Source: a bacterium (lineage in GTDB: Bacteria > 4484-113 > JAGGVC01). From it: a stretch of 64,000 bases of DNA. This document shows positions 42,599-62,156 of this stretch, in pieces (the first letter of the stretch is position 1; every line of letters starts with the position of its first letter). The position numbers and the translations under genes were made by a program. A model generated the notes under the pieces. The model saw only the letters and a program-made list of their open reading frames with translations, ran no database searches and was not told the DNA's origin. Where the stretch lies: the NCBI GenBank assembly GCA_039961635.1, contig JABRWB010000012.1, forward strand, positions 22,273 to 86,272, in the 5' to 3' direction.

Positions 42599-42652
42599 AT
42601 TGAATTGCGGTTCGCTGGTCTGGAGACCGGCGGCATATTTCAATACCTAATA

Positions 42653-43526: not shown

Positions 43527-44516
43527 CTACCTGTTCACCGCGCCCATTGCGCGTTCTGGATAGCGCAGTCCCGCGGTAATTCCCGCTGGCACGGCCTCGT
43601 CAATCGCGGCAAGCTCGTCCGAAGAAAGCTCGACCTGAACGGCCGCGATGTTTTCGTCAAGTCTTTCGCGCCGCTTCGTGCCGGGGATCGGGACGATGTG
43701 CTCGCCGCGGTGAAGCAGCCATGCAAGGCAAAGCTGCGCGGGAGTCACGCCCTTCGATTCCGAGATCTCCGAAAGCATTTCAACCAGCGCCCGGTTTTTT
43801 TGGAAATTTTCGCCCTGGAAGCGAGGGTGGTTGCGGCGCGCATCGTCTTCCGCCAAATCGCTTTCCGTCTTGAACATTCCCGCAAGCATCCCGCGGCCCA
43901 GCGGGCTGTACGCGACGAAGCAGATTCCCAGCTCCCTGCACAAATCCAGATGACCGCCCGCCTCCGGGTCGCGCGTCCACAGGCTGTACTCGGTTTGCAG
44001 CGCCGCAATCGGATGCACCGCCTGTGCGCGCTTTATAGTTTCCGGCGCGGCCTCCGACAGTCCAAGGTAGCGGATTTTCCCCGCATTCTTGAGCTCCACC
44101 ATCGCGCCGACGGTTTCCTCTATCGGCGTCTCCGGGTCGACGCGGTGCTGGTAGTAAAGGTCTATGCAGTCCACGCCGAGCCTGGAAAGGCTCGCGTCGC
44201 ACGCCGCTTTGACGTATTCCGGCTTGCCGCACACGCCTCGCCAGTTGCCGTCCGCGTCACGCACGTTGCCGAATTTGGTGGCGAGGAACACTTCGCCCCG
44301 CCGCCCGGCTATCGCACGGCCGACAAGCTCTTCGTTTCTGCCGCAGCCGTAAACGTCGGCGGTGTCGAGGAAGTTGACTCCGCGGTCGAGCGCATGGTGG
44401 ATGGTGGCGACGCTCTCGGCGTCGTCGCGGCCCGAGTAGAAGTCGCTCATCCCCATGCAGCCAAGCCCAAGAGCGGAAACCCGCTCGCCGGTGTAACCTA
44501 ATGTGCGATATTTCAT
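43527..44516 (-). CDS. Aldo/keto reductase.
   Basis: [24 protein letters not shown]...[10 protein letters not shown]...LATKFG AKR signatures; 329 aa. Confidence 0.9.
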
Positions 44517-44575
44517 GACGATTTATTCTACTTCATCTCGATCCTGTCCACATAGACTCTAGCCGCCCAGAAACC

Positions 44576-47500
44576 TCATTCTGAATGTTGTTCCGTTTTC
44601 ACTACTTCCACGCGTTCCACCTCCACCGACAGGCTGCCGTGATTGTCCGCAACGCGGCCCAGGACCGCGGCCACCTCTCCCGGATGTCCCATCGCCACCG
44701 CGCGGTCGTACGCGTCCGGCCACATCACGCAGTTGATCACGCCCTCCGGCCGGTCGAGCGTGAGGAACCGCATCCGCCGGTCCTGCTTCGTCACGGTGCG
44801 CCGCGCCTCGATAACGTAGCCGCAGACGATGACGTATCTTCCGACGTAATCCGCAAGCTGCGTCTGGAGGATGACGGGGATGCCTGTTCCGTTCCTGGAA
44901 TTGTACGGGTGGGCTTTGTATCTGCCCGAATTCGAATATCCGGATATACCGCCGGTCTCCGGAGCGGCGTGCATTGAATTATCCCAATTGTTTTTGGATG
45001 CGCCCTTATGAGGAAATGCGGCGTGTTTCGGTTTTTCCCTCAATTTTTCCACCGCTGCTTCAAGCTCCTCACTCCATATCTCCACCGGGTGCGCCCGCGG
45101 CGAAAATCCTAGCGACCTCCACTCCGCCAGCATTATTTCCTTTTCAGATGGAGCGGGCAGCTCCGGTACCGCGATTTGCGAATAAGGTTTGTCGTCGAAC
45201 AATGCGACGGCCGCCGCAGAGGCGCACTGCGTGCGCCCGCCCGAATCGTAGGGGCGGGGTTTATCCCCGCCCGCAGATTGAGGCGGGGGCGGGTAAACCG
45301 CCCCCCTACAGTTTTCATTTGAAACCTGCGCCAGCCAGTGCAGTTCGTTGCGGTTGTATTTTTTGGGAGTGCGGGAGCTCGCTCCCACCCAAGGCACCGG
45401 CGAGCCGGTGCACTCCCCAAAGTCCAGTGCGCCGCAGTCCACAAGATGCCGAGCCTCGTCGTCGCCCGGCCGCACGCGCGACATGAAATCGGCCGCGTCG
45501 CGGAACGGCCGCGCCGCGCGCTCGGCCAGTATCCGCTCCCGCGTCGCGCCCGACAGCCCGAATATCGAGCGAAGCCCCGTCCGTATCGCGGGTATGTCGT
45601 TCACCCCCTCCGCTCCGGAAGCGTATTCCGCAACCCACCTGTCCTCGCTTTTGTTCACGTCCGGCGGGAGCACCGCCACCCCCGTCCGCCGCGCCTCGCT
45701 GACGTACGCCTGCGGCCCGCTCGTTATGTAATAAATTCCGCTCCCGTTCGAGAGCACCGCGGCCATGTACTCCGCCGGAAAATGCTCTTTCAGGTAGACC
45801 GCGAGCCCGCTCACGCGCGCGAACGCGGCCGCGTGCGCCTTGCAGAAACTGTACCCGGCGAAGCTGCGCAGCTCCTCCGCGAGCTGCTCCACCGCGTCGC
45901 GCGGAATCCCGCGCTCCGCGCACCGCCGCCTGAAATCCACGAGCGCCACGGCCATCAGCTCGCCCCCGCGCAGGCTGCGCTCCTTCCCGCTCATCGCGCG
46001 GCGGAACGTATCCGCCTCGGCCCAGCTCATCCCGGCGATATCGTGCGCGACCTGCATCACCTGCTCCTGAAAGACGAGCTTGCCGTACGTCGAGCGCAGC
46101 ACCGGCTCTAGCTCCGGCAGAAGGTAGTTCGCCTTCTCCAGCCCCAGCCTGCACCGGACGTACTGCTCCTTCGCTCCCGTTCCGGCCGCGCCGGGCCGGA
46201 TCACGCTCGTGTTTATCGTCGCCTCGGGATAGCTCTGGCATTTCGTTAGGAAATAAAGCTCGCGCATTCCCGGGCTTTCGATGTCGAAACAGCCGATCGT
46301 CCGCGCCTCGCGCATCCGCGCTTTCGTGCGCTCGTCGCCGTAAATCGCGTCCACGTCCTGCGGATTTATCTCCAGCCTTCCGTTCACATCGCGAATCGTC
46401 TGCTGCACGGTTTCGAGCGCCCGCAGCGAAAGGATGTCCACCTTCACAAGCCCCACGTCCTCGACACCCCACATGTCCAGCTGCGTGAGCATGATCCCGG
46501 ATTTCGCCGTCGGCTGCACCGGGAGGAACCGCGACAGCTTTCCCGGCGCGATTACTACGCCCCCGCAGTGCACCGAAAGATGCGTCGGAAATCCCGCGAT
46601 GCCTTTCGCGATGTCGATGATGCGCGCGTGCGGCTCGTCGCGAAGCTGGGCTACCGCGGGATTGGCGTCGAACTCCGGGTCGCCGATGTATTCGAGTTGC
46701 CGGCCGCGCAATCCCGACAGCATCTTCGTAATCCGCGTGATTTGCGCGTCGGAGTATCCGAGAACCTTCGCCACCTCGCGGTAGCCGCTTTTCGCTTGGA
46801 ACGTGACGTATGTGCAAACGTTCGCGACGCGGTCGCCGCCGTATTTGTTGTAGATGTATTCGTAGACGCGGTCGCGATCCTTCCACGAAAAATCTATGTC
46901 TATGTCGGGCAGGCTCTTGCGCTCCGGGTTAAGGAACCGCTCGAAGAAGAGGTCGTGCTTTATCGGGTCTACGTCGGTAATCCCCAGCGCGTACGCGACC
47001 AGGCTGTTCGCCGCGCTGCCGCGCCCTATCGTGAACATCCCCCGCGAGTGCGCCCAGGCCACGATATCGTGCAAAATCAGGAAATACGGAATGAAACGCC
47101 CGTCGGCGATTATCCTGATTTCGTATTCGAGCTGGTTCAAATAACGCGAGCCCGCGTCCGGAATCCGCGCTTTCAGCCCGCTTAAGCAAAGGTCGTGAAA
47201 ATACTGCCACTCGGACAGCCCGAACGGGAGCGGGAACTTGGGAAAGTGCCACTTGCCCAGGTTCGGCGCGAACGCGCAGCGCTCCGCGATCGCCGCTGCG
47301 TTGCGCACCGCGTCCGGATACCGGAAATACCGCGACCATATTTCGTTGGCGGATAGGATCTTCTGCTCCGGCTGCGCGACCTCGCCCTGCCGAAGCGCGG
47401 AAAGCGTGGTCAGCTCGCGCATCGCGCGCAGCACGTGGTGCCGCGTCATCTCGCCGCGCGTCCCGTTCGCGGAGTACGCCGCGGCGGTCGCCGCGAGCGG

Positions 47501-48055
47501 GATGCGGTTCGCGCGCGCGAAGTCCGCCAGCTTCGCCGCGCGCTTTCTGTCCGCGTCGAAATCGGTCAGGATTATTTCGGCGAAAATCCTACCGCGCCAT
47601 TCCTGCACCAAACCATCAAGCAATTCCGCCCACGGCGAAATCAGAATCAATCCATCCGGGTCGGCGCGGCGCAGCGCGGGAACAAGCTCGAAATCCGCGT
47701 CGCAATGCCTGGCAGTTATCAGACCGCAAAGCGTTTCGTATCCCTTTTCGTTCTCGCACAGGAGTACCGCGTACTTCCACCATCCCGCCGCGGGCGCGGG
47801 ATCGCGCGCGGGTTCGCCGGGCGCGGCGGGCGCGCGGGGCTCGGTCACCGCGGCGCCGATGATGGGGCGAATGCCCGCTCGGTTGCATTCCTCGACGAAA
47901 ACCGTCATCCCGTATAGCCCGTCTGTGTCGGTGAGCGCGAGCGCGCGCATTCCCAGCGCGGAGGCGCGGTCCACAAGCTCGCCGGGCACGTTCGCGCCCG
48001 CCTGCATCGAATAGCAGGAATGCGTATGAAGATGAGTGAAGTTGCCGGAGATCAT
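44576..48055 (-). CDS. dnaE2: Error-prone DNA polymerase III alpha-subunit paralog DnaE2 (ImuC).
   Basis: PHP domain start MISGNFTHLHTHSCYSMQAGA; polymerase core; C-terminal OB fold (...VIVCGYVIEARRTVTKQDRRMRFLTLDRPEGVINCVMWPD). Assigned dnaE2 because of the adjacent imuB-like gene. Contains an apparent in-frame insertion of about 60-70 aa (around 45250-45420) encoded by palindromic repeat elements. Confidence 0.85.
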   Translation of the reverse strand: MISGNFTHLHTHSCYSMQAGANVPGELVDRASALGMRALALTDTDGLYGMTVFVEECNRAGIRPIIGAAVTEPRAPAAPGEPARDPAPAAGWWKYAVLLCENEKGYETLCGLITARHCDADFELVPALRRADPDGLILISPWAELLDGLVQEWRGRIFAEIILTDFDADRKRAAKLADFARANRIPLAATAAAYSANGTRGEMTRHHVLRAMRELTTLSALRQGEVAQPEQKILSANEIWSRYFRYPDAVRNAAAIAERCAFAPNLGKWHFPKFPLPFGLSEWQYFHDLCLSGLKARIPDAGSRYLNQLEYEIRIIADGRFIPYFLILHDIVAWAHSRGMFTIGRGSAANSLVAYALGITDVDPIKHDLFFERFLNPERKSLPDIDIDFSWKDRDRVYEYIYNKYGGDRVANVCTYVTFQAKSGYREVAKVLGYSDAQITRITKMLSGLRGRQLEYIGDPEFDANPAVAQLRDEPHARIIDIAKGIAGFPTHLSVHCGGVVIAPGKLSRFLPVQPTAKSGIMLTQLDMWGVEDVGLVKVDILSLRALETVQQTIRDVNGRLEINPQDVDAIYGDERTKARMREARTIGCFDIESPGMRELYFLTKCQSYPEATINTSVIRPGAAGTGAKEQYVRCRLGLEKANYLLPELEPVLRSTYGKLVFQEQVMQVAHDIAGMSWAEADTFRRAMSGKERSLRGGELMAVALVDFRRRCAERGIPRDAVEQLAEELRSFAGYSFCKAHAAAFARVSGLAVYLKEHFPAEYMAAVLSNGSGIYYITSGPQAYVSEARRTGVAVLPPDVNKSEDRWVAEYASGAEGVNDIPAIRTGLRSIFGLSGATRERILAERAARPFRDAADFMSRVRPGDDEARHLVDCGALDFGECTGSPVPWVGASSRTPKKYNRNELHWLAQVSNENCRGAVYPPPPQSAGGDKPRPYDSGGRTQCASAAAVALFDDKPYSQIAVPELPAPSEKEIMLAEWRSLGFSPRAHPVEIWSEELEAAVEKLREKPKHAAFPHKGASKNNWDNSMHAAPETGGISGYSNSGRYKAHPYNSRNGTGIPVILQTQLADYVGRYVIVCGYVIEARRTVTKQDRRMRFLTLDRPEGVINCVMWPDAYDRAVAMGHPGEVAAVLGRVADNHGSLSVEVERVEVVKTEQHSE
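45248..45309. repeat. GC-rich imperfect nested palindrome inside the dnaE2 coding sequence.
   Basis: GTAGGGGCGGGGTTTA-TCCCCGCCCGC-AGATTGA-GGCGGGGGCGGG-TAAACCGCCCCCCTAC; the outer and inner arms are mutually complementary. Translated in dnaE2 as ...CRGAVYPPPPQSAGGDKPRPYDSGG... Confidence 0.6.
45365..45417. repeat. REP/MITE-like nested-palindrome element, copy 1 (inside dnaE2 CDS, in-frame).
   Basis: GGGAGTGC-GGGAGCtcGCTCCC-acccaag-GCACCGGCgaGCCGGTGC-ACTCCC: outer arms GGGAGTGC/GCACTCCC enclosing two internal hairpins. An inverted second copy lies at 48084-48137. Confidence 0.7.
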
Positions 48056-48059
48056 GTTT

Positions 48060-48137
48060 TTATGTGGGAGTGCACCTTTATGTGGGAGTGCACCGGCTTG
48101 CCGGTGCCTTTGTCGGGAGCAAGCTCCCGCACTCCCA
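48060..48137. repeat. REP/MITE-like nested-palindrome element, copy 2, with a partial tandem duplication of its 5' arm. Located between the dnaE2 start and the DUF72 start.
   Basis: TTATGTGGGAGTGCACC (48060-48076) then TTTATGTGGGAGTGCACC-GGCTTGCCGGTGC-CTTTGTC-GGGAGCaaGCTCCC-GCACTCCC (48077-48137). The reverse complement matches copy 1 at about 85 % identity. Confidence 0.7.
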
Positions 48138-48159
48138 AAATTCCTTTTATAATCCCACC

Positions 48160-49149
48160 GTGGAAATCCACATCGGCACGTCGGGCTGGAGCTACCCCGA
48201 ATGGATCGGGCCGTTCTACCCGCGGGGCACGGGCCGCGCGAAGCTGCTCGAAGCGTACTCGGCGGTGTTCGATGCGGCGGAGGTGAACTCCACCTACTAC
48301 AGGCTGCCGGGCGCGAAGACCGTCGAGGGATGGGTGGAAAAAACCGGCGGCAGGATGATTTTCGCCGTCAAGCTCCCGAAGGAGCTGACGCACGCGGGAA
48401 GCCCGGTCGCGGGCAGCGCGGACGCGGGATGGGAGGTGGACGCCGCGGTCGAGCGCGCGGCGGAGGCGGTACGGCAGTGCGTCGCGCCGCTCGCGGACGC
48501 GGGCGCGCTTGGATGCCTGCTCGCGCAATTTCCGTCCAGCTTCCACCGCAACCGCGAAAACTCGCGCTACCTGGGATGGCTGCGCGGCGCGCTGAAAGAA
48601 TTTCCGCTCGTCGTCGAATTCAGGAACGACGAATGGATACGCCCCGAAATTCTGAAATGGCTCGCGGATACCGGCACTGGATTCGCCTGCGTTGACCAGC
48701 CGCGGCTCGCGGGACTCGCGCCGCCGTTCTTTCTCGCGACGGGCGAAACGGGATACGTGCGGATGCACGGGCGCAACTCGGCGAACTGGTGGACGGGCGA
48801 CAACGTGACGCGGTACGAGTACGATTACAGCGACGCTGAATTGAATGAATGGGCGGATGTCGTCCGCCGCGCAATCCAGAATTTCGGAGGCGGTACCTCC
48901 CAGTCCCGCAAAGAAGCCGATTCGTCCGAAACGTCCGCGTCCGCGATCCCGCTCGACGCCGATGCGGAAGTGTTTTTGAAGGAACGCAAGGTTTTCGACT
49001 GGGACAGAACACTCGGCGTCGAGTCCTCGATGACCGAAGCCCGCGCGATGCTCAAAAAGATTTTCTTCTTCTACAACAACCACTCGCACGCGTACGCCGC
49101 CAAGAACGCGTTGCGGTTCAGGGAAATGATGATGGAGGAATCGCGTTAG
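48160..49149 (+). CDS. DUF72 (YecE-like) family protein.
   Basis: GTG 48160 (VEIHIGTSGWSYPEWIGPFYP matches the DUF72 N-terminal signature IGTSGWxYxxW). A -10 TATAAT at 48148-48153 is only 6 nt upstream, suggesting a leaderless transcript. The track start 48064 would read through the repeat element. Confidence 0.8.
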   Translation: MEIHIGTSGWSYPEWIGPFYPRGTGRAKLLEAYSAVFDAAEVNSTYYRLPGAKTVEGWVEKTGGRMIFAVKLPKELTHAGSPVAGSADAGWEVDAAVERAAEAVRQCVAPLADAGALGCLLAQFPSSFHRNRENSRYLGWLRGALKEFPLVVEFRNDEWIRPEILKWLADTGTGFACVDQPRLAGLAPPFFLATGETGYVRMHGRNSANWWTGDNVTRYEYDYSDAELNEWADVVRRAIQNFGGGTSQSRKEADSSETSASAIPLDADAEVFLKERKVFDWDRTLGVESSMTEARAMLKKIFFFYNNHSHAYAAKNALRFREMMMEESR

Positions 49150-52052: not shown

Positions 52053-52302
52053 CGGAACCTGGCCTGCGCGCAAGCGCCTAGCCGGACGGGCCGCCCCCTG
52101 GGATTGGGAGAACCGGGAGAACGATGCTGTAAGAGTGCGGGAAAACAGGGCAGGGCGCGGCCGCGGGCCGCTTCGGGATGCAAAGCGCAAAATTCATCAA
52201 GCCGTCCTCCTTTGGATGGATTTCCCCGGTGATGCGGTCAGCCCGCATGCCGTGGATTGCGCATTTTACCCCAGATCGCGGGAAATGCAACAGAAAAAAG
52301 TA

Positions 52303-52377
52303 GCCGAGTTGAGAGTTGCCGAGTTGTGAGTTGCCGATTTGTGAGTTGCCGAGTTGTGAGTTGCCGAGTCGAGGGTT
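52303..52377. repeat. Tandem direct repeat, 5 copies of a 15-nt unit (GCCGAGTTGTGAGTT consensus).
   Basis: GCCGAGTTGAGAGTT / GCCGAGTTGTGAGTT / GCCGATTTGTGAGTT / GCCGAGTTGTGAGTT / GCCGAGTCGAGGGTT, read directly; located in a 630-bp intergenic region. Confidence 0.8.
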
Positions 52378-52800
52378 GGAAACAATATCTACAAGGAGCC
52401 GAGGCTTCAGCCTCGGCGGAACGCAATGGAAACCGTGGCAAGTGCAAGGCAAGCCAATCCGAGGAGCGCCGCCCCCAATGGCTGCAAATCAAATGCCTCC
52501 ATATTGGCAGCTATGCAATTCCGCGAACCAAATGCCGGAATCCGGGTCTATAATGACGGCGATGGGGATTTTCCAGCGGGACGAATACGGGCCGATCATC
52601 TCGCCGCGCCGCCGCGCTCCGATTAACGGGTATTCCGGTACCCGAATGTGGATGCGCGCAAATTCCGCGCCAGTGGTACCTTACAAAAGCGCGTAATAGG
52701 GACTCAAGCGGGGTATAATACCAGCGAGCGGTCACCTTCCCGGAGGTTGGTGCAACTTGTCGGGAACACGCCGATTGGTTTTGCACATTGGAGAAAGGAT

Positions 52801-54550: not shown

Positions 54551-57500
54551 ATGGAGTTTGAAATGGCGAAAAGGAATCTGATTGCTGTTGTCGTGCTCGT
54601 GCTTGCGTTTGCGATGTACGCCTGTGGAGGCGGCAGGAAGCTAAGCTCTCCCGCTCCTATTCCGTCCGGCCCAGTCTCCGACCAACAGGCAGGCGGCTCC
54701 GACAATACGGTTGGCTCGCTCTCGGATGCGCTGAAGGCAATCGTGGATTACGAAAACTCGCAGACCGCGATGCAGGCCGCGCGGGATGCCGCCCGCAAGC
54801 CGAGCGCCGTGCCGAATACGCTTCTTGGCGACGAGGAGTGGATGAAAGGCCCGACGATGAACAACTATGAAGAGGATTTCGATTCGCACACCCTTACGGC
54901 GATAAGCGATTCCTCCGATATCGAAGACGTCGGATTTTTGGGCTTCGCCGTGTACAGGTTCGACGGGCATGCCGCCGATACCGATCTTTCCCTCGCCGCA
55001 GAAATAGAGCCTGCGCCGGGAAGCTCCTTTTACATTTACGTGGTGAGCTGGGATGGACCGCCAAGATGGATAAGCTTCGGTCCGTTTTTTGAAAATCCAG
55101 GTCCGCCGGATTGGCCGATCGAATTCGCGTTCGACGCGGTTTCGCCAACCGGCAGCATTTACGTCGGGATTGCGGTTTACGCCGAAAGCGAAGCGACAAC
55201 CTGGTCGTTTACTGTGGATTCCACCGGAGGTGCATCAAGTCCTCCATTCGCGGATATTCAGGCCAATCCAAAGTCGGGAGATCCGCCGCTAAATGTTTCG
55301 TTTGATGCCGGAAACAGCTACGACCCTGACGGAGGGGCGATAACGTTATTCGAGTGGGATTTCGAAGGCGACGGCGTTTACGACGAATCTGGCGCATCAT
55401 GGACGGCTTCCCACATTTACAACGCGCCGGGCGTTTATGCCGCAACTGTTCGAGTAACGGACGACGAAGGGGAAAAGGACACAGCGCACACGATTGTGCG
55501 CGCGGGAGCGAATCCGTATTACGAAACGGAGGACAACGACGACCTTCCGCAGGCGAACGCGCTGCCTGCGTTCGACTTCTCGGGCAACACGGTGTCCGGC
55601 TCCATCGGCAACGACGATCCCGAAGGCAATTACCCGGGCTACGACGGGGACAGTTCGGATGCGTTTTCTTTTGCCATAACCGAGGCCAGCACGGTTTCGC
55701 TGACAATTCTGTATGACTGGGAAACCTGCGGGCTTGGATTCGACGTGTACGACGAAATGTGGAATTATTACGGCGGCGGCAATGGCGACAACGGTATCGC
55801 ATTCGCCGAAGTGGGATTGACAAATCCAGGCACTTACTACGTTTGGTTATACAGTTGGTGGGGATACAGCGATTACATAATCACCGGCTCGCGCGTGTCG
55901 GGGGTCAAACCGGTTGCAGATATCGTGGCTGAACCTTCGTCCGGCGAGGCACCGCTTGACGTTCAATTGGACGCCGGTGCAAGTTATGATCCCGACGGCG
56001 GCTCCATCGTCAAGTACGAATGGGATTTCGAAGGCGACGGAATTTATGACGAAGATACCGGCGGTACGCCCATAACCAACCACATTTATGCGGACGATGG
56101 ATTTTATCTTGCGACCGTCCGGGTAACTGACGACGAAGGCGCAGCCGCAACCGACTCCGCTCTTGTATATGTTGGAACTCCGTTTTACGAAGTTGAAGAC
56201 AACGAGGAGTTTTACCAGGCAACACCGCTTCCGGCATTTCCTTTCCCGGCTCCGCTTGTGAACGGCAGCGTAGGTTCAAGTTTGGATTATCCGGGTTACG
56301 ACGGCGATTACTACGATGTATTTTCGTTTGCAACAACAGAGGCAGGCGCTGTTGAATTCCTGCTTACATACGGCACCGACTATGGTACGGCATATTTCGA
56401 CATTTACGACGGGGATTGGAATTATTACGGCGGCTCTTGGGACGGCGACGGAGACGGTTACCTGGTGGTGTATTTAGACAATCCCAATACCTACTATATT
56501 TCGGTTGGGATGAACACGGGCGAATGGACCGAATACGAATTGGAAGGGGCGTTTTATCCGGGCCAGCTTCCAGTCGCCGACATAGTCGCAGCGCCCGCAT
56601 ACGGCGATCCGCCGCTCGACGTGGATTTTGACGCGGCCGCAAGCTACGATCCCGACGGAGGAGCCATCGTCAAATACGAATGGGATTTCGACGGCGACGG
56701 GGTTTGGGACGAGGACACGGGGGGCAGTCCGGTTGCTTCGCACCAATACACGTCCGAAGGTGTGTATGTCGCGGCGGTCCGCGTGACCGACGACGAGGGC
56801 GCGCCGGATATAGACACCAAGGTGATAGTTGTCGGCAATCCGCAGTATTTCGAAATCGAGGATAACGATTGGATGGATGAAGCCAATCCGTTGCCCGATT
56901 TGCCGTTCCCGTCGCCCTTGGTCAACGGCAGCATAGGCTGGGGCAGCGGCTATGATGGTTACGACGGCGATACAGAAGACTTCTTTAGTTTCGAAACCGA
57001 TGAATCCGGAAGCATTAATCTCTTTATCGAATTCGAGCAAATGACCGCACCGAACACCGAAGCCTACGTAATCAACTCAAATGAAGACTGGATCGCAGGA
57101 GATTACGACAGGGACGGCGACGGAGACATAGAGCTTCAGGCGTTCCTGCCGGATCCGGGCAAATACTATATAGCGGTTTTCAACAGTGGTTTTGAGGAAT
57201 TCTCTGATTACGAAATAACGGCGGAATTAATCCCAGGCGATCCGCCCGTAGCGGATTTCACAGCCGATCCGATCTGGGGCTCGCCTCCGCTGGCGGTGGA
57301 TTTTGACGCTTCCGCAAGCTACGACCCGGACGGAGGCCCGATTGTCAATTACATGTGGGATTACGACGGGGACGGCATTTACGATGAAGAATCGCCCGGC
57401 GATCCGACGATATCCCATTCGTACGATGACGCGGGGATTTATAACGCGACGCTCAAAGTGATTGACGAGGAGGGCGCGTATACCTCGGCCAGCATTAGAA

Positions 57501-57883
57501 TAATCGTCGGGCCGTTTTACGAAACCGAGGACAACGACGACTCGACGGAAGCGGACGCGCTTCCGGCATTCCCGTTCTATTCGGATACGGTGACCGGCAA
57601 TTTGGGAGCCGGCGGATACAACGGAGACAACGAGGATTGGTTTGAATTCGAGATTACAGATCCCGGCGAAATTTACTTTTACATCGAATACAACTTCAAT
57701 CTCGCCAACCTGCAGGTGGAGATTTTCGACTCATCGCTAAACCAAATCTACTCTTCCTATATGGACGGCGATTACGAGGAGATAGATTACTGGCTGGATT
57801 CACCCGGCACTTATTACCTGCGCTGTTTCGTCAACTCCGGTCAGACGAACTACGTGATGTCCGGCGAATTCTGGAGCTGGTAG
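54551..57883 (+). CDS. Giant lipoprotein with four tandem PKD plus pre-peptidase C-terminal (PPC) domain pairs.
   Basis: Lipobox VVLVLAFAMYACGGG. Four PKD units (PPLNVSFDAGNSYDPDGGAITLFEWDFEGDGVYDE...; APLDVQLDAGASYDPDGGSIVKYEWDFEGDGIYDE; PPLDVDFDAAASYDPDGGAIVKYEWDFDGDGVWDE; PPLAVDFDASASYDPDGGPIVNYMWDYDGDGIYDE), each followed by a PPC-like unit (YYETEDNDD...A..LPAF.F...V.G..G...Y.GYDGD..D.FSF). Repeat period is about 660-670 bp. Confidence 0.75.
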   Translation: MEFEMAKRNLIAVVVLVLAFAMYACGGGRKLSSPAPIPSGPVSDQQAGGSDNTVGSLSDALKAIVDYENSQTAMQAARDAARKPSAVPNTLLGDEEWMKGPTMNNYEEDFDSHTLTAISDSSDIEDVGFLGFAVYRFDGHAADTDLSLAAEIEPAPGSSFYIYVVSWDGPPRWISFGPFFENPGPPDWPIEFAFDAVSPTGSIYVGIAVYAESEATTWSFTVDSTGGASSPPFADIQANPKSGDPPLNVSFDAGNSYDPDGGAITLFEWDFEGDGVYDESGASWTASHIYNAPGVYAATVRVTDDEGEKDTAHTIVRAGANPYYETEDNDDLPQANALPAFDFSGNTVSGSIGNDDPEGNYPGYDGDSSDAFSFAITEASTVSLTILYDWETCGLGFDVYDEMWNYYGGGNGDNGIAFAEVGLTNPGTYYVWLYSWWGYSDYIITGSRVSGVKPVADIVAEPSSGEAPLDVQLDAGASYDPDGGSIVKYEWDFEGDGIYDEDTGGTPITNHIYADDGFYLATVRVTDDEGAAATDSALVYVGTPFYEVEDNEEFYQATPLPAFPFPAPLVNGSVGSSLDYPGYDGDYYDVFSFATTEAGAVEFLLTYGTDYGTAYFDIYDGDWNYYGGSWDGDGDGYLVVYLDNPNTYYISVGMNTGEWTEYELEGAFYPGQLPVADIVAAPAYGDPPLDVDFDAAASYDPDGGAIVKYEWDFDGDGVWDEDTGGSPVASHQYTSEGVYVAAVRVTDDEGAPDIDTKVIVVGNPQYFEIEDNDWMDEANPLPDLPFPSPLVNGSIGWGSGYDGYDGDTEDFFSFETDESGSINLFIEFEQMTAPNTEAYVINSNEDWIAGDYDRDGDGDIELQAFLPDPGKYYIAVFNSGFEEFSDYEITAELIPGDPPVADFTADPIWGSPPLAVDFDASASYDPDGGPIVNYMWDYDGDGIYDEESPGDPTISHSYDDAGIYNATLKVIDEEGAYTSASIRIIVGPFYETEDNDDSTEADALPAFPFYSDTVTGNLGAGGYNGDNEDWFEFEITDPGEIYFYIEYNFNLANLQVEIFDSSLNQIYSSYMDGDYEEIDYWLDSPGTYYLRCFVNSGQTNYVMSGEFWSW

Positions 57884-61375: not shown

Positions 61376-61720
61376 TGGAGGTGGGGGGAATCGAACCCCC
61401 GTCCGAACGGGCACCCGGGACGGCGTCTACGGCGGTAGTCTGCGGATTAATCTTAACGCCCTTCGGAAGCCGCAAACGACACCTCCGGGCGGGCAGCCCT
61501 TAATCTTTCGCGGATGCCGGGCGTTCTCCGCGGCATCCCCTGGATCTGGCCGCGCATCCGAGCCCCAGGGGCCCGGCGCGGTGCGCGGTCGTCGCTATGT
61601 TAAGCGGCGAGAGCGAAATCGCGGTTGGCGATTATGTTTTGCTGGGGTTGTTGACCCGGCGTCCAGCCGCCGGGCGTCGCAGCCGATCGTGCATCCCATC
61701 CGTCGAATCCATACACCCCC
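61376..61720 (-). ncRNA. ssrA: Transfer-messenger RNA (tmRNA, ssrA).
   Basis: Minus-strand 5' end GGGGGTGTATGGATTCGACGG... (complement of 61720 downward). Tag ORF ...GCCAACCGCGATTTCGCTCTCGCCGCTTAA = ANRDFALAA* (around 61601-61630). 3' tRNA-like end GGACGGGGGTTCGATTCCCCCCACCTCCA with encoded CCA (complement of 61376-61378). Confidence 0.85.
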
Positions 61721-62156
61721 ATGTAAATGTGCAGGCGCGGGACAGGGCGGAAAAGCGCGCCCTCCACGCGGACACATTATACCCCGGTTTCGTCAAGTTT
61801 GAATGGGAGCCGGCAAAAAGGAGAATGGCCGGGACGAGCCGGCCCGTAATCCAAGCAGGAAATATACCCCCTATCTCCAGATCGGGGTAAGGTAGGTCTC
61901 TACGCCGCTCAAGAGAGCGGCGGTATATGTTTCAAAGGTTGATTCGGTGAACGTTGCTCTGAAGACCGGCGGCGTATATGGCAAAAGTTGATGAATTGAA
62001 CGCCGGCATCGAGATCGACCGTATATTATGTTATCAATTCCCGCTCGTTACATCTCTCACAAGCCCGCAATTCAGGTATATCAGTACCAGAATACCGATA
62101 TAAACATGCGGGTGCCAGGGAACGGCGCCCGTTGTTTGATTCCAAGGAGGAACATC

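Follow-up and report, generated by a model that had tools for sequence, protein, structure and literature searches.

In-frame REP-type inverted doublets within a DnaE2-like polymerase gene of a deep-branching bacterium

A DnaE2-like polymerase gene contains two palindromic repeat elements, here called A and B, which lie close together in its C-terminal part and leave its reading frame intact. Both were studied within the window, that is, the whole 64-kb stretch of bacterial DNA that was analysed, and the features of interest are collected in Table 1. We consider it highly probable that A and B are REP doublets of the REPIN type, mobilised by a RAYT transposase and carried in frame within linkers of the DnaE2-like enzyme, most likely as tolerated passengers. 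Since in-frame REP dimers in dnaE2 were already published in 2013 (PMC3733652), the present case is a new instance of a known phenomenon, and the rarity that an earlier note on this DNA had ascribed to such insertions does not hold up.

Table 1. Features of the polymerase gene, its repeat elements and its surroundings (positions in the window)
Feature	Positions	Strand	Composition or remark	Basis
DnaE-family polymerase gene, DnaE2/ImuC-like	44576..48055	-	1159 aa	ORF and translation, Pfam
Third lineage-specific in-frame insert	44861..45043	-	~58 aa (aa ~1005-1065), between HPxE motif and OB fold	alignment
Element B, inverted head-outside doublet of GTAG-tagged REP units	45248..45309	.		palindrome, folding and repeat searches
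Element B, unit 1	45248-45272		GTAG GGGCGGGG TTTAT CCCCGCCC	
Element B, unit 2 (inverted)	45285-45309		reverse complement: GTAG GGGGGCGG TTTAC CCGCCCCC	
Native coding segment between A and B	45310..45364	-	K898-N915 (18 aa), R-x-E-L-x-W helix	alignment
Element A, REPIN-like inverted doublet	45361..45421	.	core 45365-45417, T/A runs on both sides	palindrome, folding and repeat searches
Element A, unit 1	45365-45386		GGGAGTGC + stem GGGAGC, loop TC, stem GCTCCC	
Element A, unit 2 (inverted)	45394-45417		reverse complement: GGGAGTGC + ACCGGC TC GCCGGT	
Perfect tandem duplication, 18 nt	48059..48094	+	TTTATGTGGGAGTGCACC x2	read from sequence, 8-mer matches
Second copy of element A, opposite in orientation to the one inside the gene	48080..48140	.	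core 48084-48136	inverted-repeat search, pattern match
DUF72-family neighbour, divergent	48159..49149	+	GTG start at 48159 inferred	Pfam on the gene called in L003/L001

Palindromic elements and the gene that carries them

In element A the outer arms GGGAGTGC and GCACTCCC surround two inner hairpins, with unit stems of 6-8 bp, loops of 2-4 nt and doublet arms of 22 nt that are 77% complementary. On the mRNA-sense strand it folds with -33.3 kcal/mol (z -2.9), and 3 of 200 shuffled sequences folded equally well. The outer arms of element B, GTAGGGG and CCCCTAC, likewise enclose two inner hairpins; here the stems are 8 bp, the loops 5 nt, and the doublet arms 27 nt (81% complementary) with a spacer of 8 nt. 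Its mRNA-sense strand folds with -41.5 kcal/mol (z -4.1, with none of the 200 shuffles equally good), and its plus strand forms a single long hairpin of -44.7 kcal/mol. The two hairpin elements that the earlier note had recognised at 45248-45309 and 45365-45417 are real; both fold better than shuffled sequence, and the z-scores of the elements overall range from -2.9 to -4.6. Each stem of element B has a GTAG before it and the doublet ends in CTAC, in keeping with the GTAG superfamily of Di Nocera 2013, whose stem-loops carry an unpaired GTAG, or a GYRG/GTGG variant of it, at one end. The canonical GTAG head is absent from element A, where GGGAGT/GTGC precedes the stem. None of the six frames of A contains a stop codon; in B, each strand has one frame with stop codons and two open ones, and the frame in use is open.

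Element B is present once in the 64-kb window and element A twice, besides one 18-nt duplicated terminus; a degenerate 53-nt pattern of A matched at both A sites and nowhere else in the window, with 0 matches expected (100 shuffles). The second copy of A, which had been noted before and is confirmed here, is extragenic and sits between the divergent starts of dnaE2 (ATG at 48055) and the DUF72 gene. The two copies are 91% identical over 57 nt and constitute the longest inverted repeat of the window; they differ at 5 positions, all in loops or the spacer, and their stems are identical. An extra GGGAGTGC at 48066 arises because the 18-nt duplication copies the terminus and flank of this intergenic copy. 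The orthologous intergenic region of L001 is ~32 nt long and lacks element A. A scan for terminators and promoters revealed no such site coincident with the elements, and an Rfam scan of 44700-48300 returned chance matches only, the best reaching 16-20 bits against gathering thresholds of 51-80.

The Pfam domains of the polymerase follow in the order PHP, pol III alpha core, fingers, HhH and OB fold, all in one frame. PHP, pol3_alpha, finger and HHH_6 (aa 792-879) are N-terminal to both elements and the OB fold (aa 1075-1152) is C-terminal to them, in agreement with the earlier claim that the elements lie between polymerase core and OB fold without breaking the frame. The OB fold ends at residue 1152 of 1159 and nothing is found C-terminal to it, which is the domain arrangement of DnaE2/ImuC; according to Timinskas et al. 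(2014), DnaE1 is said to have a further C-terminal domain (tau-binding). The protein scored 651 bits with the NCBIfam DnaE1 model (cut-off 1002) and 582 bits with the error-prone model NF004225 (cut-off 939), and thus under both curated cut-offs. Among three more distant homologues examined, two, P0013 (36-37% identical) and P0022 (39%), lie in lexA-IMS(imuB)-dnaE cassettes, and the third, P0007, lies outside any such cassette. This genomic context of its homologues supports the label dnaE2 for the gene. The window gene and its orthologue have no linkage to imuB, their neighbours being DUF72, aldo-keto reductase or other genes. The word essential, which the earlier note applied to the fold of this polymerase, is open to question, since polymerases of the DnaE2 type have an accessory role.

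Against its 75%-identical orthologue P0002, the gene has an overall dN/dS of 0.19/1.42 = 0.136 (about 0.14) over 1089 codons, with dS saturated, and its polymerase core has a ratio of 0.093. These values indicate purifying selection on the dnaE2-like gene, which, with all its domains in frame, is functional. A dS of 1.4 relative to the nearest relative also implies that the intact element is younger than that split or else has been maintained. A decaying pseudogene, whose frame stays open through the inserts as a by-product of high GC, would account for the missing imuB neighbour that its homologues possess, for the accumulation of three inserts and for the low NCBIfam scores; we regard it as extremely improbable given the low dN/dS, an intact ORF of 1159 codons with five domains in a single frame, catalytic-core columns that are invariant in an alignment of 14 sequences, and the fact that B has stops in one frame of three per strand and is read in an open one.

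Inserts relative to homologous polymerases

Element A codes for G880-P897 (18 aa, GECTGSPVPWVGASSRTP) and element B for C916-Y936 (21 aa, CRGAVYPPPPQSAGGDKPRPY). In the alignment with orthologues both are lineage-specific inserts, located at exactly the A and B sites. They do not form one block of 60-70 extra residues, as had been proposed: 18 native residues intervene, and that account also overlooked the third insert. In the native segment R902, E904, L905 and W907 are invariant (14 sequences), and AlphaFold models it as helical with a pLDDT of about 94 (model residues 201-210). This helix has one insert on either side, and both inserts lie upstream of the OB fold and of a probable clamp-binding motif, A-L-F. 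Annotators should regard the peptides GECTGSPVPWVGASSRTP and CRGAVYPPPPQSAGGDKPRPY as derived from repeats, not as features of the polymerase.

The spacing from D878 to R902 at site A is 23 aa in our sequence, compared with a median of 5 and a maximum of 18 elsewhere in 119 homologues, and cutting out the 54 nt at 45365-45418 leaves 5 residues, which is precisely that median. The gene offers a clean, well-delimited case of mobile palindromic DNA turned protein sequence, in which excision restores the spacing of site A. At site B the length is 56 aa against a median of 30 (range 0 to 176), and the third site has 84 aa, where the homologues have 26 in the median and at most 52 (119 homologues in each case). 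The third insert, with a GC content of 52%, is non-palindromic and has no excess folding (z 0.12), and its similarity elsewhere is limited to 17-27 nt, at 42613-42638 and 61902-61928; as it has no secondary-structure signal and such short matches only, it was ruled out as a REP.

Intact elements are absent from the closest orthologue, and neither A nor B was found in 23 kb of that relative. P0002 does have 8 extra residues at site A, where 14 of 17 nt resemble A unit 2 in a different reading frame, so this stretch may in part reflect earlier or repeated insertion at the site and not a single clean event; P0002 carries extra residues at site 3 as well. No empty-site alleles were present within the 90% clusters of P0001 and P0002. 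Three fragments of a relative's dnaE2 (P0243-P0245) were considered as a natural disrupted allele and rejected, because neighbouring genes on the same contig, L248, are likewise broken up and P0245 owes its tail to a frameshift, both of which point to sequencing error as the cause of the split.

The hypervariable linker length of the homologues at site B and the extra residues of P0002 at sites A and 3 might suggest a native, fast-evolving, low-complexity linker that is palindromic by chance. This reading, together with that of an assembly artefact, is effectively refuted: A has a second copy of 91% identity in a non-coding stretch at a distance of 2.7 kb, exact units occur in hundreds of unrelated contigs, and the folding z-scores depart clearly from those of shuffled sequence. 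The 3.75-kb sequence is moreover 100% identical between assemblies of two separate sequencing runs, and the polymerase protein is also found in one NCBI MAG, as MEP0813455.1.

In the AlphaFold model, confidence is low at the inserts only: the mean pLDDT of 10-residue blocks falls to 44-67 at A (aa ~880-899), at B with the adjoining linker (~910-959) and at the third insert (~1010-1059). Values below 50 are reached at residues 882-894, 936-950 and 1035-1046, and the segments between the low regions have 91-95. Such low confidence is weak evidence of disorder, because it is expected wherever an alignment has no homologous columns; the peptides of A and B are nevertheless probably disordered, and the flexible linker that the earlier note had suggested fits the model.

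REP units and RAYT genes in other genomes

Many phyla contain exact matches to the half-unit of A, of the GGGAGTGCGGGAGCNNGCTCCCC type (GGGAGTGCGGGAGCNNGCTCCC), in at least 120 genome stretches altogether, where a back-of-envelope estimate gives about 1 match by chance (20 specified bases in 596 Gb). The hosts of this half-unit include Acidobacteriota, Armatimonadota, Verrucomicrobiota, Kiritimatiellae, Planctomycetota, Gamma- and Betaproteobacteria, Eremiobacterota and Chloroflexota, and it can be multi-copy: one Fimbriimonas MAG has it on more than 20 contigs, and one Acidiferrales MAG at more than 12 loci. Among the matches listed, about 8 of 124 copies share the closed 53-56-nt doublet architecture of element A. 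The 25-mer that forms unit 1 of B recurs exactly in at least 120 metagenome contigs, where it is often arranged in inverted doublets. Units of A type fell within ORFs of at least 300 aa in 46% of cases, compared with 69% of random positions, a comparison based on stop-to-stop ORFs of which the long ones look like spurious high-GC frames.

RAYT genes adjoin A-type units in L067, L122, L012, L057 and L042, with a frameshifted copy in L096, and in L067 and L122 the units are found on both sides of the gene. L057 scored 83.8 bits with NCBIfam REP_Tyr_transpos (cut-off 80) and L067 78.7 bits (E 4e-22). B units likewise flank RAYT genes, which lie beside or between them in L182, L159, L199, L193 and L194, and those of L182, L159 and L193 reached 97.7-105.6 bits with the same model. 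The E. coli RAYT served solely as a tblastn probe, and the basis of these conclusions is that NCBIfam and Pfam confirmed its matches. A and B therefore belong to mobile repeat families, as had been surmised, with units of both found next to RAYT genes. The RAYT relatives of the GGGAGTGCGGGAGCTTGCTCCC REP unit are 42-57% identical, and this unit and its RAYT relatives span at least 8 phyla, a distribution relevant to the idea that vertical inheritance is the main route for REPIN-RAYT systems.

By the mechanism that we favour, a RAYT (a Y1/HUH tyrosine transposase) would have mobilised the REP doublets A and B through single-stranded DNA, each inserting into the C-terminal part of the DnaE2-like gene, with a further copy of A just upstream. 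The enzyme would survive only those insertions that comprise 3n bases, introduce no stop codon and sit in a surface linker; A and B are insertions of this sort, so they would persist and be translated as extra residues. Their effect on the enzyme is assumed to be neutral. The 64-kb window has no RAYT gene and just two copies of A and one of B, which counts against this explanation, and mobilisation by a RAYT in this genome is something that we infer.

The term REP/MITE-like, used in the earlier note, was apt in its first half: the inverted units and the RAYT partners are those of REPs and REPINs. MITEs such as Correia and Nezha are small non-autonomous repeats that rely on DDE transposases, bear terminal inverted repeats and target-site duplications, and sometimes lie in frame in genes (PMC10969869). 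A and B are also small, non-autonomous and in frame, and a deletion derivative of a DDE-transposase insertion sequence could likewise be short, non-coding, palindromic and repeated. No MITE hallmark is seen in A or B, however, and such an origin is very unlikely. The elements measure merely 53-62 nt and are built of two inverted stem-loop units rather than terminal inverted repeats around unrelated DNA, B has REP-typical GTAG/CTAC termini, and both unit types are flanked elsewhere by RAYT genes and not by DDE transposases. Target-site duplications, which the earlier note had proposed to look for, are not visible at the three insertion sites when the junctions are compared with L001.

A possible alternative role for the inserts is one in which they were recruited for function, as peptides or as hairpins, tying REP/RAYT activity to mutagenesis. 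As peptides, longer linkers around the clamp-binding motif could tune the contacts of DnaE2 with the sliding clamp and ImuB; as nucleic acid, hairpins in the 5' leader and the coding region could regulate dnaE2. REPs have repeatedly been reported in replication and repair genes (PMC3733652), both A copies of the 64 kb are associated with one gene, their stems are perfectly kept while loops and spacer vary, and three separate inserts cluster in the linker region between the clamp-binding motif and the OB fold. We nonetheless consider recruitment unlikely. Recent transposition explains the conservation of the stems equally well, and clustering in linkers is predicted by survivorship alone; the closest orthologue does without intact elements, the insert peptides are unconserved (the linker region is 48% identical to that of P0002, the core 83%) and predicted to be unstructured, and the elements coincide with no terminator- or promoter-like site.

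It is still less likely, though conceivable, that REP/RAYT systems preferentially target DnaE2 or are retained in it, where they might serve as a linker module of tunable length or, in the form of paired hairpins, as a gate on expression or RAYT-dependent rearrangement of the mutagenic polymerase. This idea draws on the occurrence of two REP families 18 codons apart next to the probable clamp-binding motif, on the sister copy in the leader and on the recurrence of REPs in repair genes; the paired hairpins would be those of the 5' leader and the coding region, which are 91% complementary over 57 nt.

Comparison with known systems

Ogata et al. (2000, cited in PMC3733652) reportedly described Rickettsia palindromic elements (RPE) that lie in frame within protein genes and are translated as surface segments, the function of the protein being kept. 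Elements A and B resemble RPE in being palindromic repeats that are in frame in a coding gene and, by our reading, translated as extra segments. RPE exceed our elements in length (about 100-150 nt in RPE-1), are rich in AT and bear a CGTC tag; no dedicated transposase is known for them, nor are they known outside Rickettsia. A and B, in contrast, are shorter, and RAYT genes stand beside their units in other genomes.

With REPIN-RAYT systems (Nunvar et al. 2010, PMC2817692; Bertels & Rainey 2011, PMC3116915) the elements share inverted REP doublets capable of forming hairpins, conserved units with a variable spacer, and RAYT genes flanked by cognate units, which here are those of other genomes. 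Short, imperfectly palindromic stem-loop units of 20-40 nt and the pairing of two inverted units across a short spacer, both typical of REPs, are found in A and B alike. Classic REPINs are extragenic by definition and measure 70-110 nt in Pseudomonas (PMC2817692, PMC3116915), whereas our doublets are of 53-62 nt and intragenic, the window contains no RAYT, and the head of A is not GTAG. An extragenic location, which A (45365-45417) and B lack, is seen in the second copy of A, and intragenic exceptions have been documented (PMC3733652).

The closest parallel is provided by the GTAG-tagged REPs of Di Nocera, De Gregorio & Rocco (2013, BMC Genomics 14:522), which are mostly dimers and, where in frame, encode 20-30 aa (PMC3733652). 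Opitutus terrae dnaE2 (Oter_4053) carries an in-frame REP dimer at aa 934-971 of 1116, and Sphingomonas wittichii dnaE2 (Swit_1119) and Rickettsia conorii dnaE are also REP-tagged (PMC3733652). Many intragenic REPs were located in replication and repair genes, these being the sole REP-tagged genes in some species, some genes had two inserts, and the authors speculated on a link between REP/RAYT activity and mutagenesis (PMC3733652). The elements described here are alike in being in-frame dimers within dnaE2, but they occur in a different, deep-branching host, have different REP sequences, and represent two REP families set 18 codons apart in one linker, with a sister copy upstream of the gene. 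For the host's EF-G, the closest matches with a lineage name come from KSB1, Zixibacteria and Calditrichota, at about 47% identity. The observation of REP-tagged dnaE2 genes is thereby extended to a deep-branching lineage.

In-frame inserts in a DnaE2-like polymerase

All Pfam domains of the polymerase lie in a single frame, and elements A and B, as previously claimed, lie in that frame between the polymerase core and the OB fold. Only seven residues remain past this fold before the stop; the protein therefore lacks the extra C-terminal domain that replicative DnaE1 carries there. The NCBIfam scores of 651 bits (DnaE1 model) and 582 bits (error-prone model), each under its own cut-off, do not settle the subfamily. 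The only close relative among 5.8 billion proteins is the orthologue P0002 (70–75% identity), all others being at most about 42% identical. Two of three distant homologues examined, P0013 and P0022, sit in lexA-IMS(imuB)-dnaE cassettes, a gene order classically tied to SOS mutagenesis, and on this ground we accept the name "DnaE2-like"; the third, P0007, is outside any such cassette. There is no imuB beside the window gene or the P0002 gene, the flank being a divergent DUF72 gene. Comparison with P0002 (dN/dS 0.19/1.42 for the whole gene, 0.13/1.38 for the core) shows purifying selection on the polymerase gene. In L248 (JGI Ga0645780_04349), from a strain with about 97% identity to P0002, the gene calls break up dnaE2 and several of its neighbours; simple frameshifts spread over many genes point to an indel-rich assembly and against real pseudogenes.

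Features of the window and linker lengths of its polymerase (residue n begins at nt 48055-3(n-1); comparison with 119 homologues)
Feature	Nucleotides	Residues	Details
Polymerase ORF (minus)	44576-48055	1159 aa	PHP, pol III alpha, finger, HHH_6 (aa 792-879), OB-fold (aa 1075-1152)
Element A core	45365-45417		GGGAGTGC ... GCACTCCC enclosing GGGAGC-TC-GCTCCC and CACCGGC-GA-GCCGGTG
Element A peptide		G880-P897	18 aa
Element B	45248-45309		GTAGGGG ... CCCCTAC enclosing GGGGCGGGG-TTTAT-CCCCGCCC and GGGGGCGG-GTAAA-CCGCCCCC
Element B peptide		C916-Y936	21 aa
Second copy of A (inverted)	48084-48136		91% identity over 57 nt
Perfect 18-nt tandem duplication	48059-48076, 48077-48094		TTTATGTGGGAGTGCACC x2; terminus of intergenic REP doublet
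Third in-frame insert	~44861-45043	~1005-1065	~58 aa, before OB fold; lineage-specific
Site A linker		D878..R902	23 aa; median 5, maximum elsewhere 18
Site B linker		W907..P964	56 aa; median 30, range elsewhere 0-176
Site 3 linker		P990..V1075	84 aa; median 26, maximum elsewhere 52
PKD-domain protein gene	54563-57883		four diverged ~666-nt repeats at 55283-57406
15-nt tandem array	52284-52378		AGTTGCCGAGTTGTG-like, 5-6 copies, upstream of PKD-domain gene
tmRNA gene (minus)	61376-61720		tag peptide ANRDFALAA

The earlier note read the elements as one block of 60–70 extra residues. Alignment with orthologues bears out the extra length at sites A and B but shows two inserts on either side of a native helix, since the intervening K898-N915 holds R902, E904, L905 and W907, invariant in a 14-sequence alignment. 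Once nt 45365-45418 (54 nt) are excised, site A retains F-K-K-Y-N and thereby has precisely its canonical length of five residues. P0002 has eight extra residues at this site (L001:12620-12660 versus window 45390-45420), and 17 nt there agree with unit 2 of A at 14 positions but are read in a different frame. The extra residues may be the remnant of an earlier insertion or may mark a recurrent target that was hit independently. As dS is saturated, an intact element must be younger than the split from P0002, or else maintained.

The third insert, missed by the earlier note, is non-palindromic, with 52% GC and no folding signal (z 0.12). Site 3 of the window protein is the longest among 120 homologues, P0002 having a shorter insert there of about 20 aa. 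Elsewhere in the window the insert finds similarity over only 17–27 nt, at two intergenic sites. The shared motif, GRAGACCGGCGG(C)RTATAT, lies in the convergent DLH/YkuD intergenic gap (42600-42638), in the insert (44944-44970) and, in two copies, a short way upstream of the tmRNA gene (61902-61977); with E values of 0.14–2.2 this similarity is weak and may be due to chance.

An assembly artefact is unlikely, because positions 44500-48250 are 100% identical between assemblies from two separate sequencing runs and the 1159-aa protein has also been deposited from an NCBI MAG.

Structure and folding of the palindromic elements

The hairpins reported earlier can be read directly from the sequence in both elements, in each case within outer arms. 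Each element consists of two inverted stem-loop units with their heads outside, which read 5'-3' as GGGAGTGC-GGGAGC-TC-GCTCCC and GGGAGTGC-ACCGGC-TC-GCCGGT in A, and as GTAG-GGGCGGGG-TTTAT-CCCCGCCC and GTAG-GGGGGCGG-TTTAC-CCGCCCCC in B. On the mRNA-sense (minus) strand both fold better than shuffled sequences, A at -33.3 kcal/mol (z -2.9; 3 of 200 shuffles as good) and B at -41.5 kcal/mol (z -4.1; 0 of 200). Neither matched an Rfam family, and a site scan found no terminator- or promoter-like sites coinciding with them.

The second copy of A, previously placed at 48084-48137, is indeed present, and the pair forms the longest inverted repeat of the 64-kb window. A 53-nt pattern with N at five variable positions matches just these two sites, with none expected; the copies have identical stems, and each of their five differences is in one of the two loops or in the spacer. 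The upstream copy is an insert as well, because the DUF72-dnaE intergenic region is about 103 nt here versus about 32 nt in L001, the orthologous locus. The 18-nt tandem duplication, to which an additional GGGAGTGC at 48066 belongs, is separated from the dnaE2 start codon (ATG) downstream by only 4 nt, and may be the footprint of the insertion or repair event.

A is free of stops in all six frames. In B, two frames out of three are open on each strand, and the frame in use is among them, so that every insertion with a length divisible by three would survive. When aa 700-1159 were modelled with AlphaFold on a 44-sequence alignment (mean pLDDT 79.5), 10-residue block means were 44–67, with no secondary structure, at aa ~880-899 (A), ~910-959 (B and the adjoining variable linker) and ~1010-1059 (third insert), falling below 50 at residues 882-894, 936-950 and 1035-1046. 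Values of 91–95 are reached by the OB fold and by the helix that separates A from B. The flexible linker proposed earlier agrees with the low values at the inserts, which hint only faintly at loops because low pLDDT is expected where the alignment is gapped. About 15 residues past the end of B, a conserved [SA]-L-F, aligned among homologues, is probably the internal clamp-binding motif, judging from its position and from knowledge of DnaE.

REP families and their transposases

Over 185,579 species-representative genomes, the A-family pattern GGGAGTGCGGGAGCNNGCTCCC matches at least 120 genome stretches, against about one by chance on a back-of-envelope estimate. Hosts among the matches listed include Acidobacteriota, Fimbriimonas, Chthoniobacter and other Verrucomicrobiota, Kiritimatiellae, Planctomycetota, Gamma- and Betaproteobacteria, Eremiobacterota and Anaerolineales. 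In most listed copies unit 1 is followed by another hairpin that is specific to the lineage and has a CTTG loop, and about 8 of 124 have the closed 53–56-nt architecture of the window. Searches by tblastn and then by profile placed genes for RAYTs (REP-associated tyrosine transposases) directly beside A-type units at six loci, with doublets on both sides in L067 and L122. The NCBIfam profile REP_Tyr_transpos (cut-off 80 bits) gives 83.8 bits for the Acidobacteriota gene and 78.7 bits (E 4e-22) for that of Kiritimatiellae; the Pfam Y1_Tnp match of the A-adjacent genes is weak. B units occur in at least 120 metagenome contigs, often as inverted pairs in those listed, nearly all of which carry exactly GTAGGGGCGGGGTTTA[TC]CCCCGCCC; five contigs have RAYT genes between or beside them, three of which were tested and score 97.7–105.6 bits. 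The 64-kb window itself contains no RAYT gene.

The 22-nt unit GGGAGTGCGGGAGC(TT)GCTCCC is identical in MAGs of at least eight phyla (for example L067:1697-1751, L122:53-110 and L057:1733-1754), and the RAYTs beside it are 42–57% identical across phyla. For REPIN-RAYT systems, which are said to be mainly vertically inherited, this distribution is odd, and it is suggestive of horizontal spread or of strong constraints on recognition.

Comparison with known in-frame REPs

REP doublets (REPINs) are established as a replicative unit with RAYT partners (PMC3116915; PMC2817692). Of the earlier label "REP/MITE-like", the REP/REPIN part holds, given the inverted doublets and the RAYTs that adjoin such units elsewhere; MITE is the wrong class. 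We consider it likely that RAYT-type REP doublets inserted in frame into a DnaE2-like polymerase that stays functional, within disordered linkers where A and B would persist as tolerated passengers. With these corrections the original observation is real and its interpretation largely right, except that in-frame fixation cannot be called rare: Di Nocera et al. (2013) describe the same situation, with examples that include R. conorii dnaE and the dnaE2 genes of S. wittichii and O. terrae (in the latter, a dimer spans aa 934-971 of 1116), and raise both the argument of neutrality in a linker or loop and a speculative mutator role (PMC3733652). The present gene is therefore a fresh instance of a known phenomenon, in a host whose EF-G is about 47% identical to its nearest named relatives. 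A REP dimer inside dnaE2 is common to the O. terrae case and ours; two distinct REP families 18 codons apart, and a sister copy of A upstream of the polymerase gene itself, are particular to the window.
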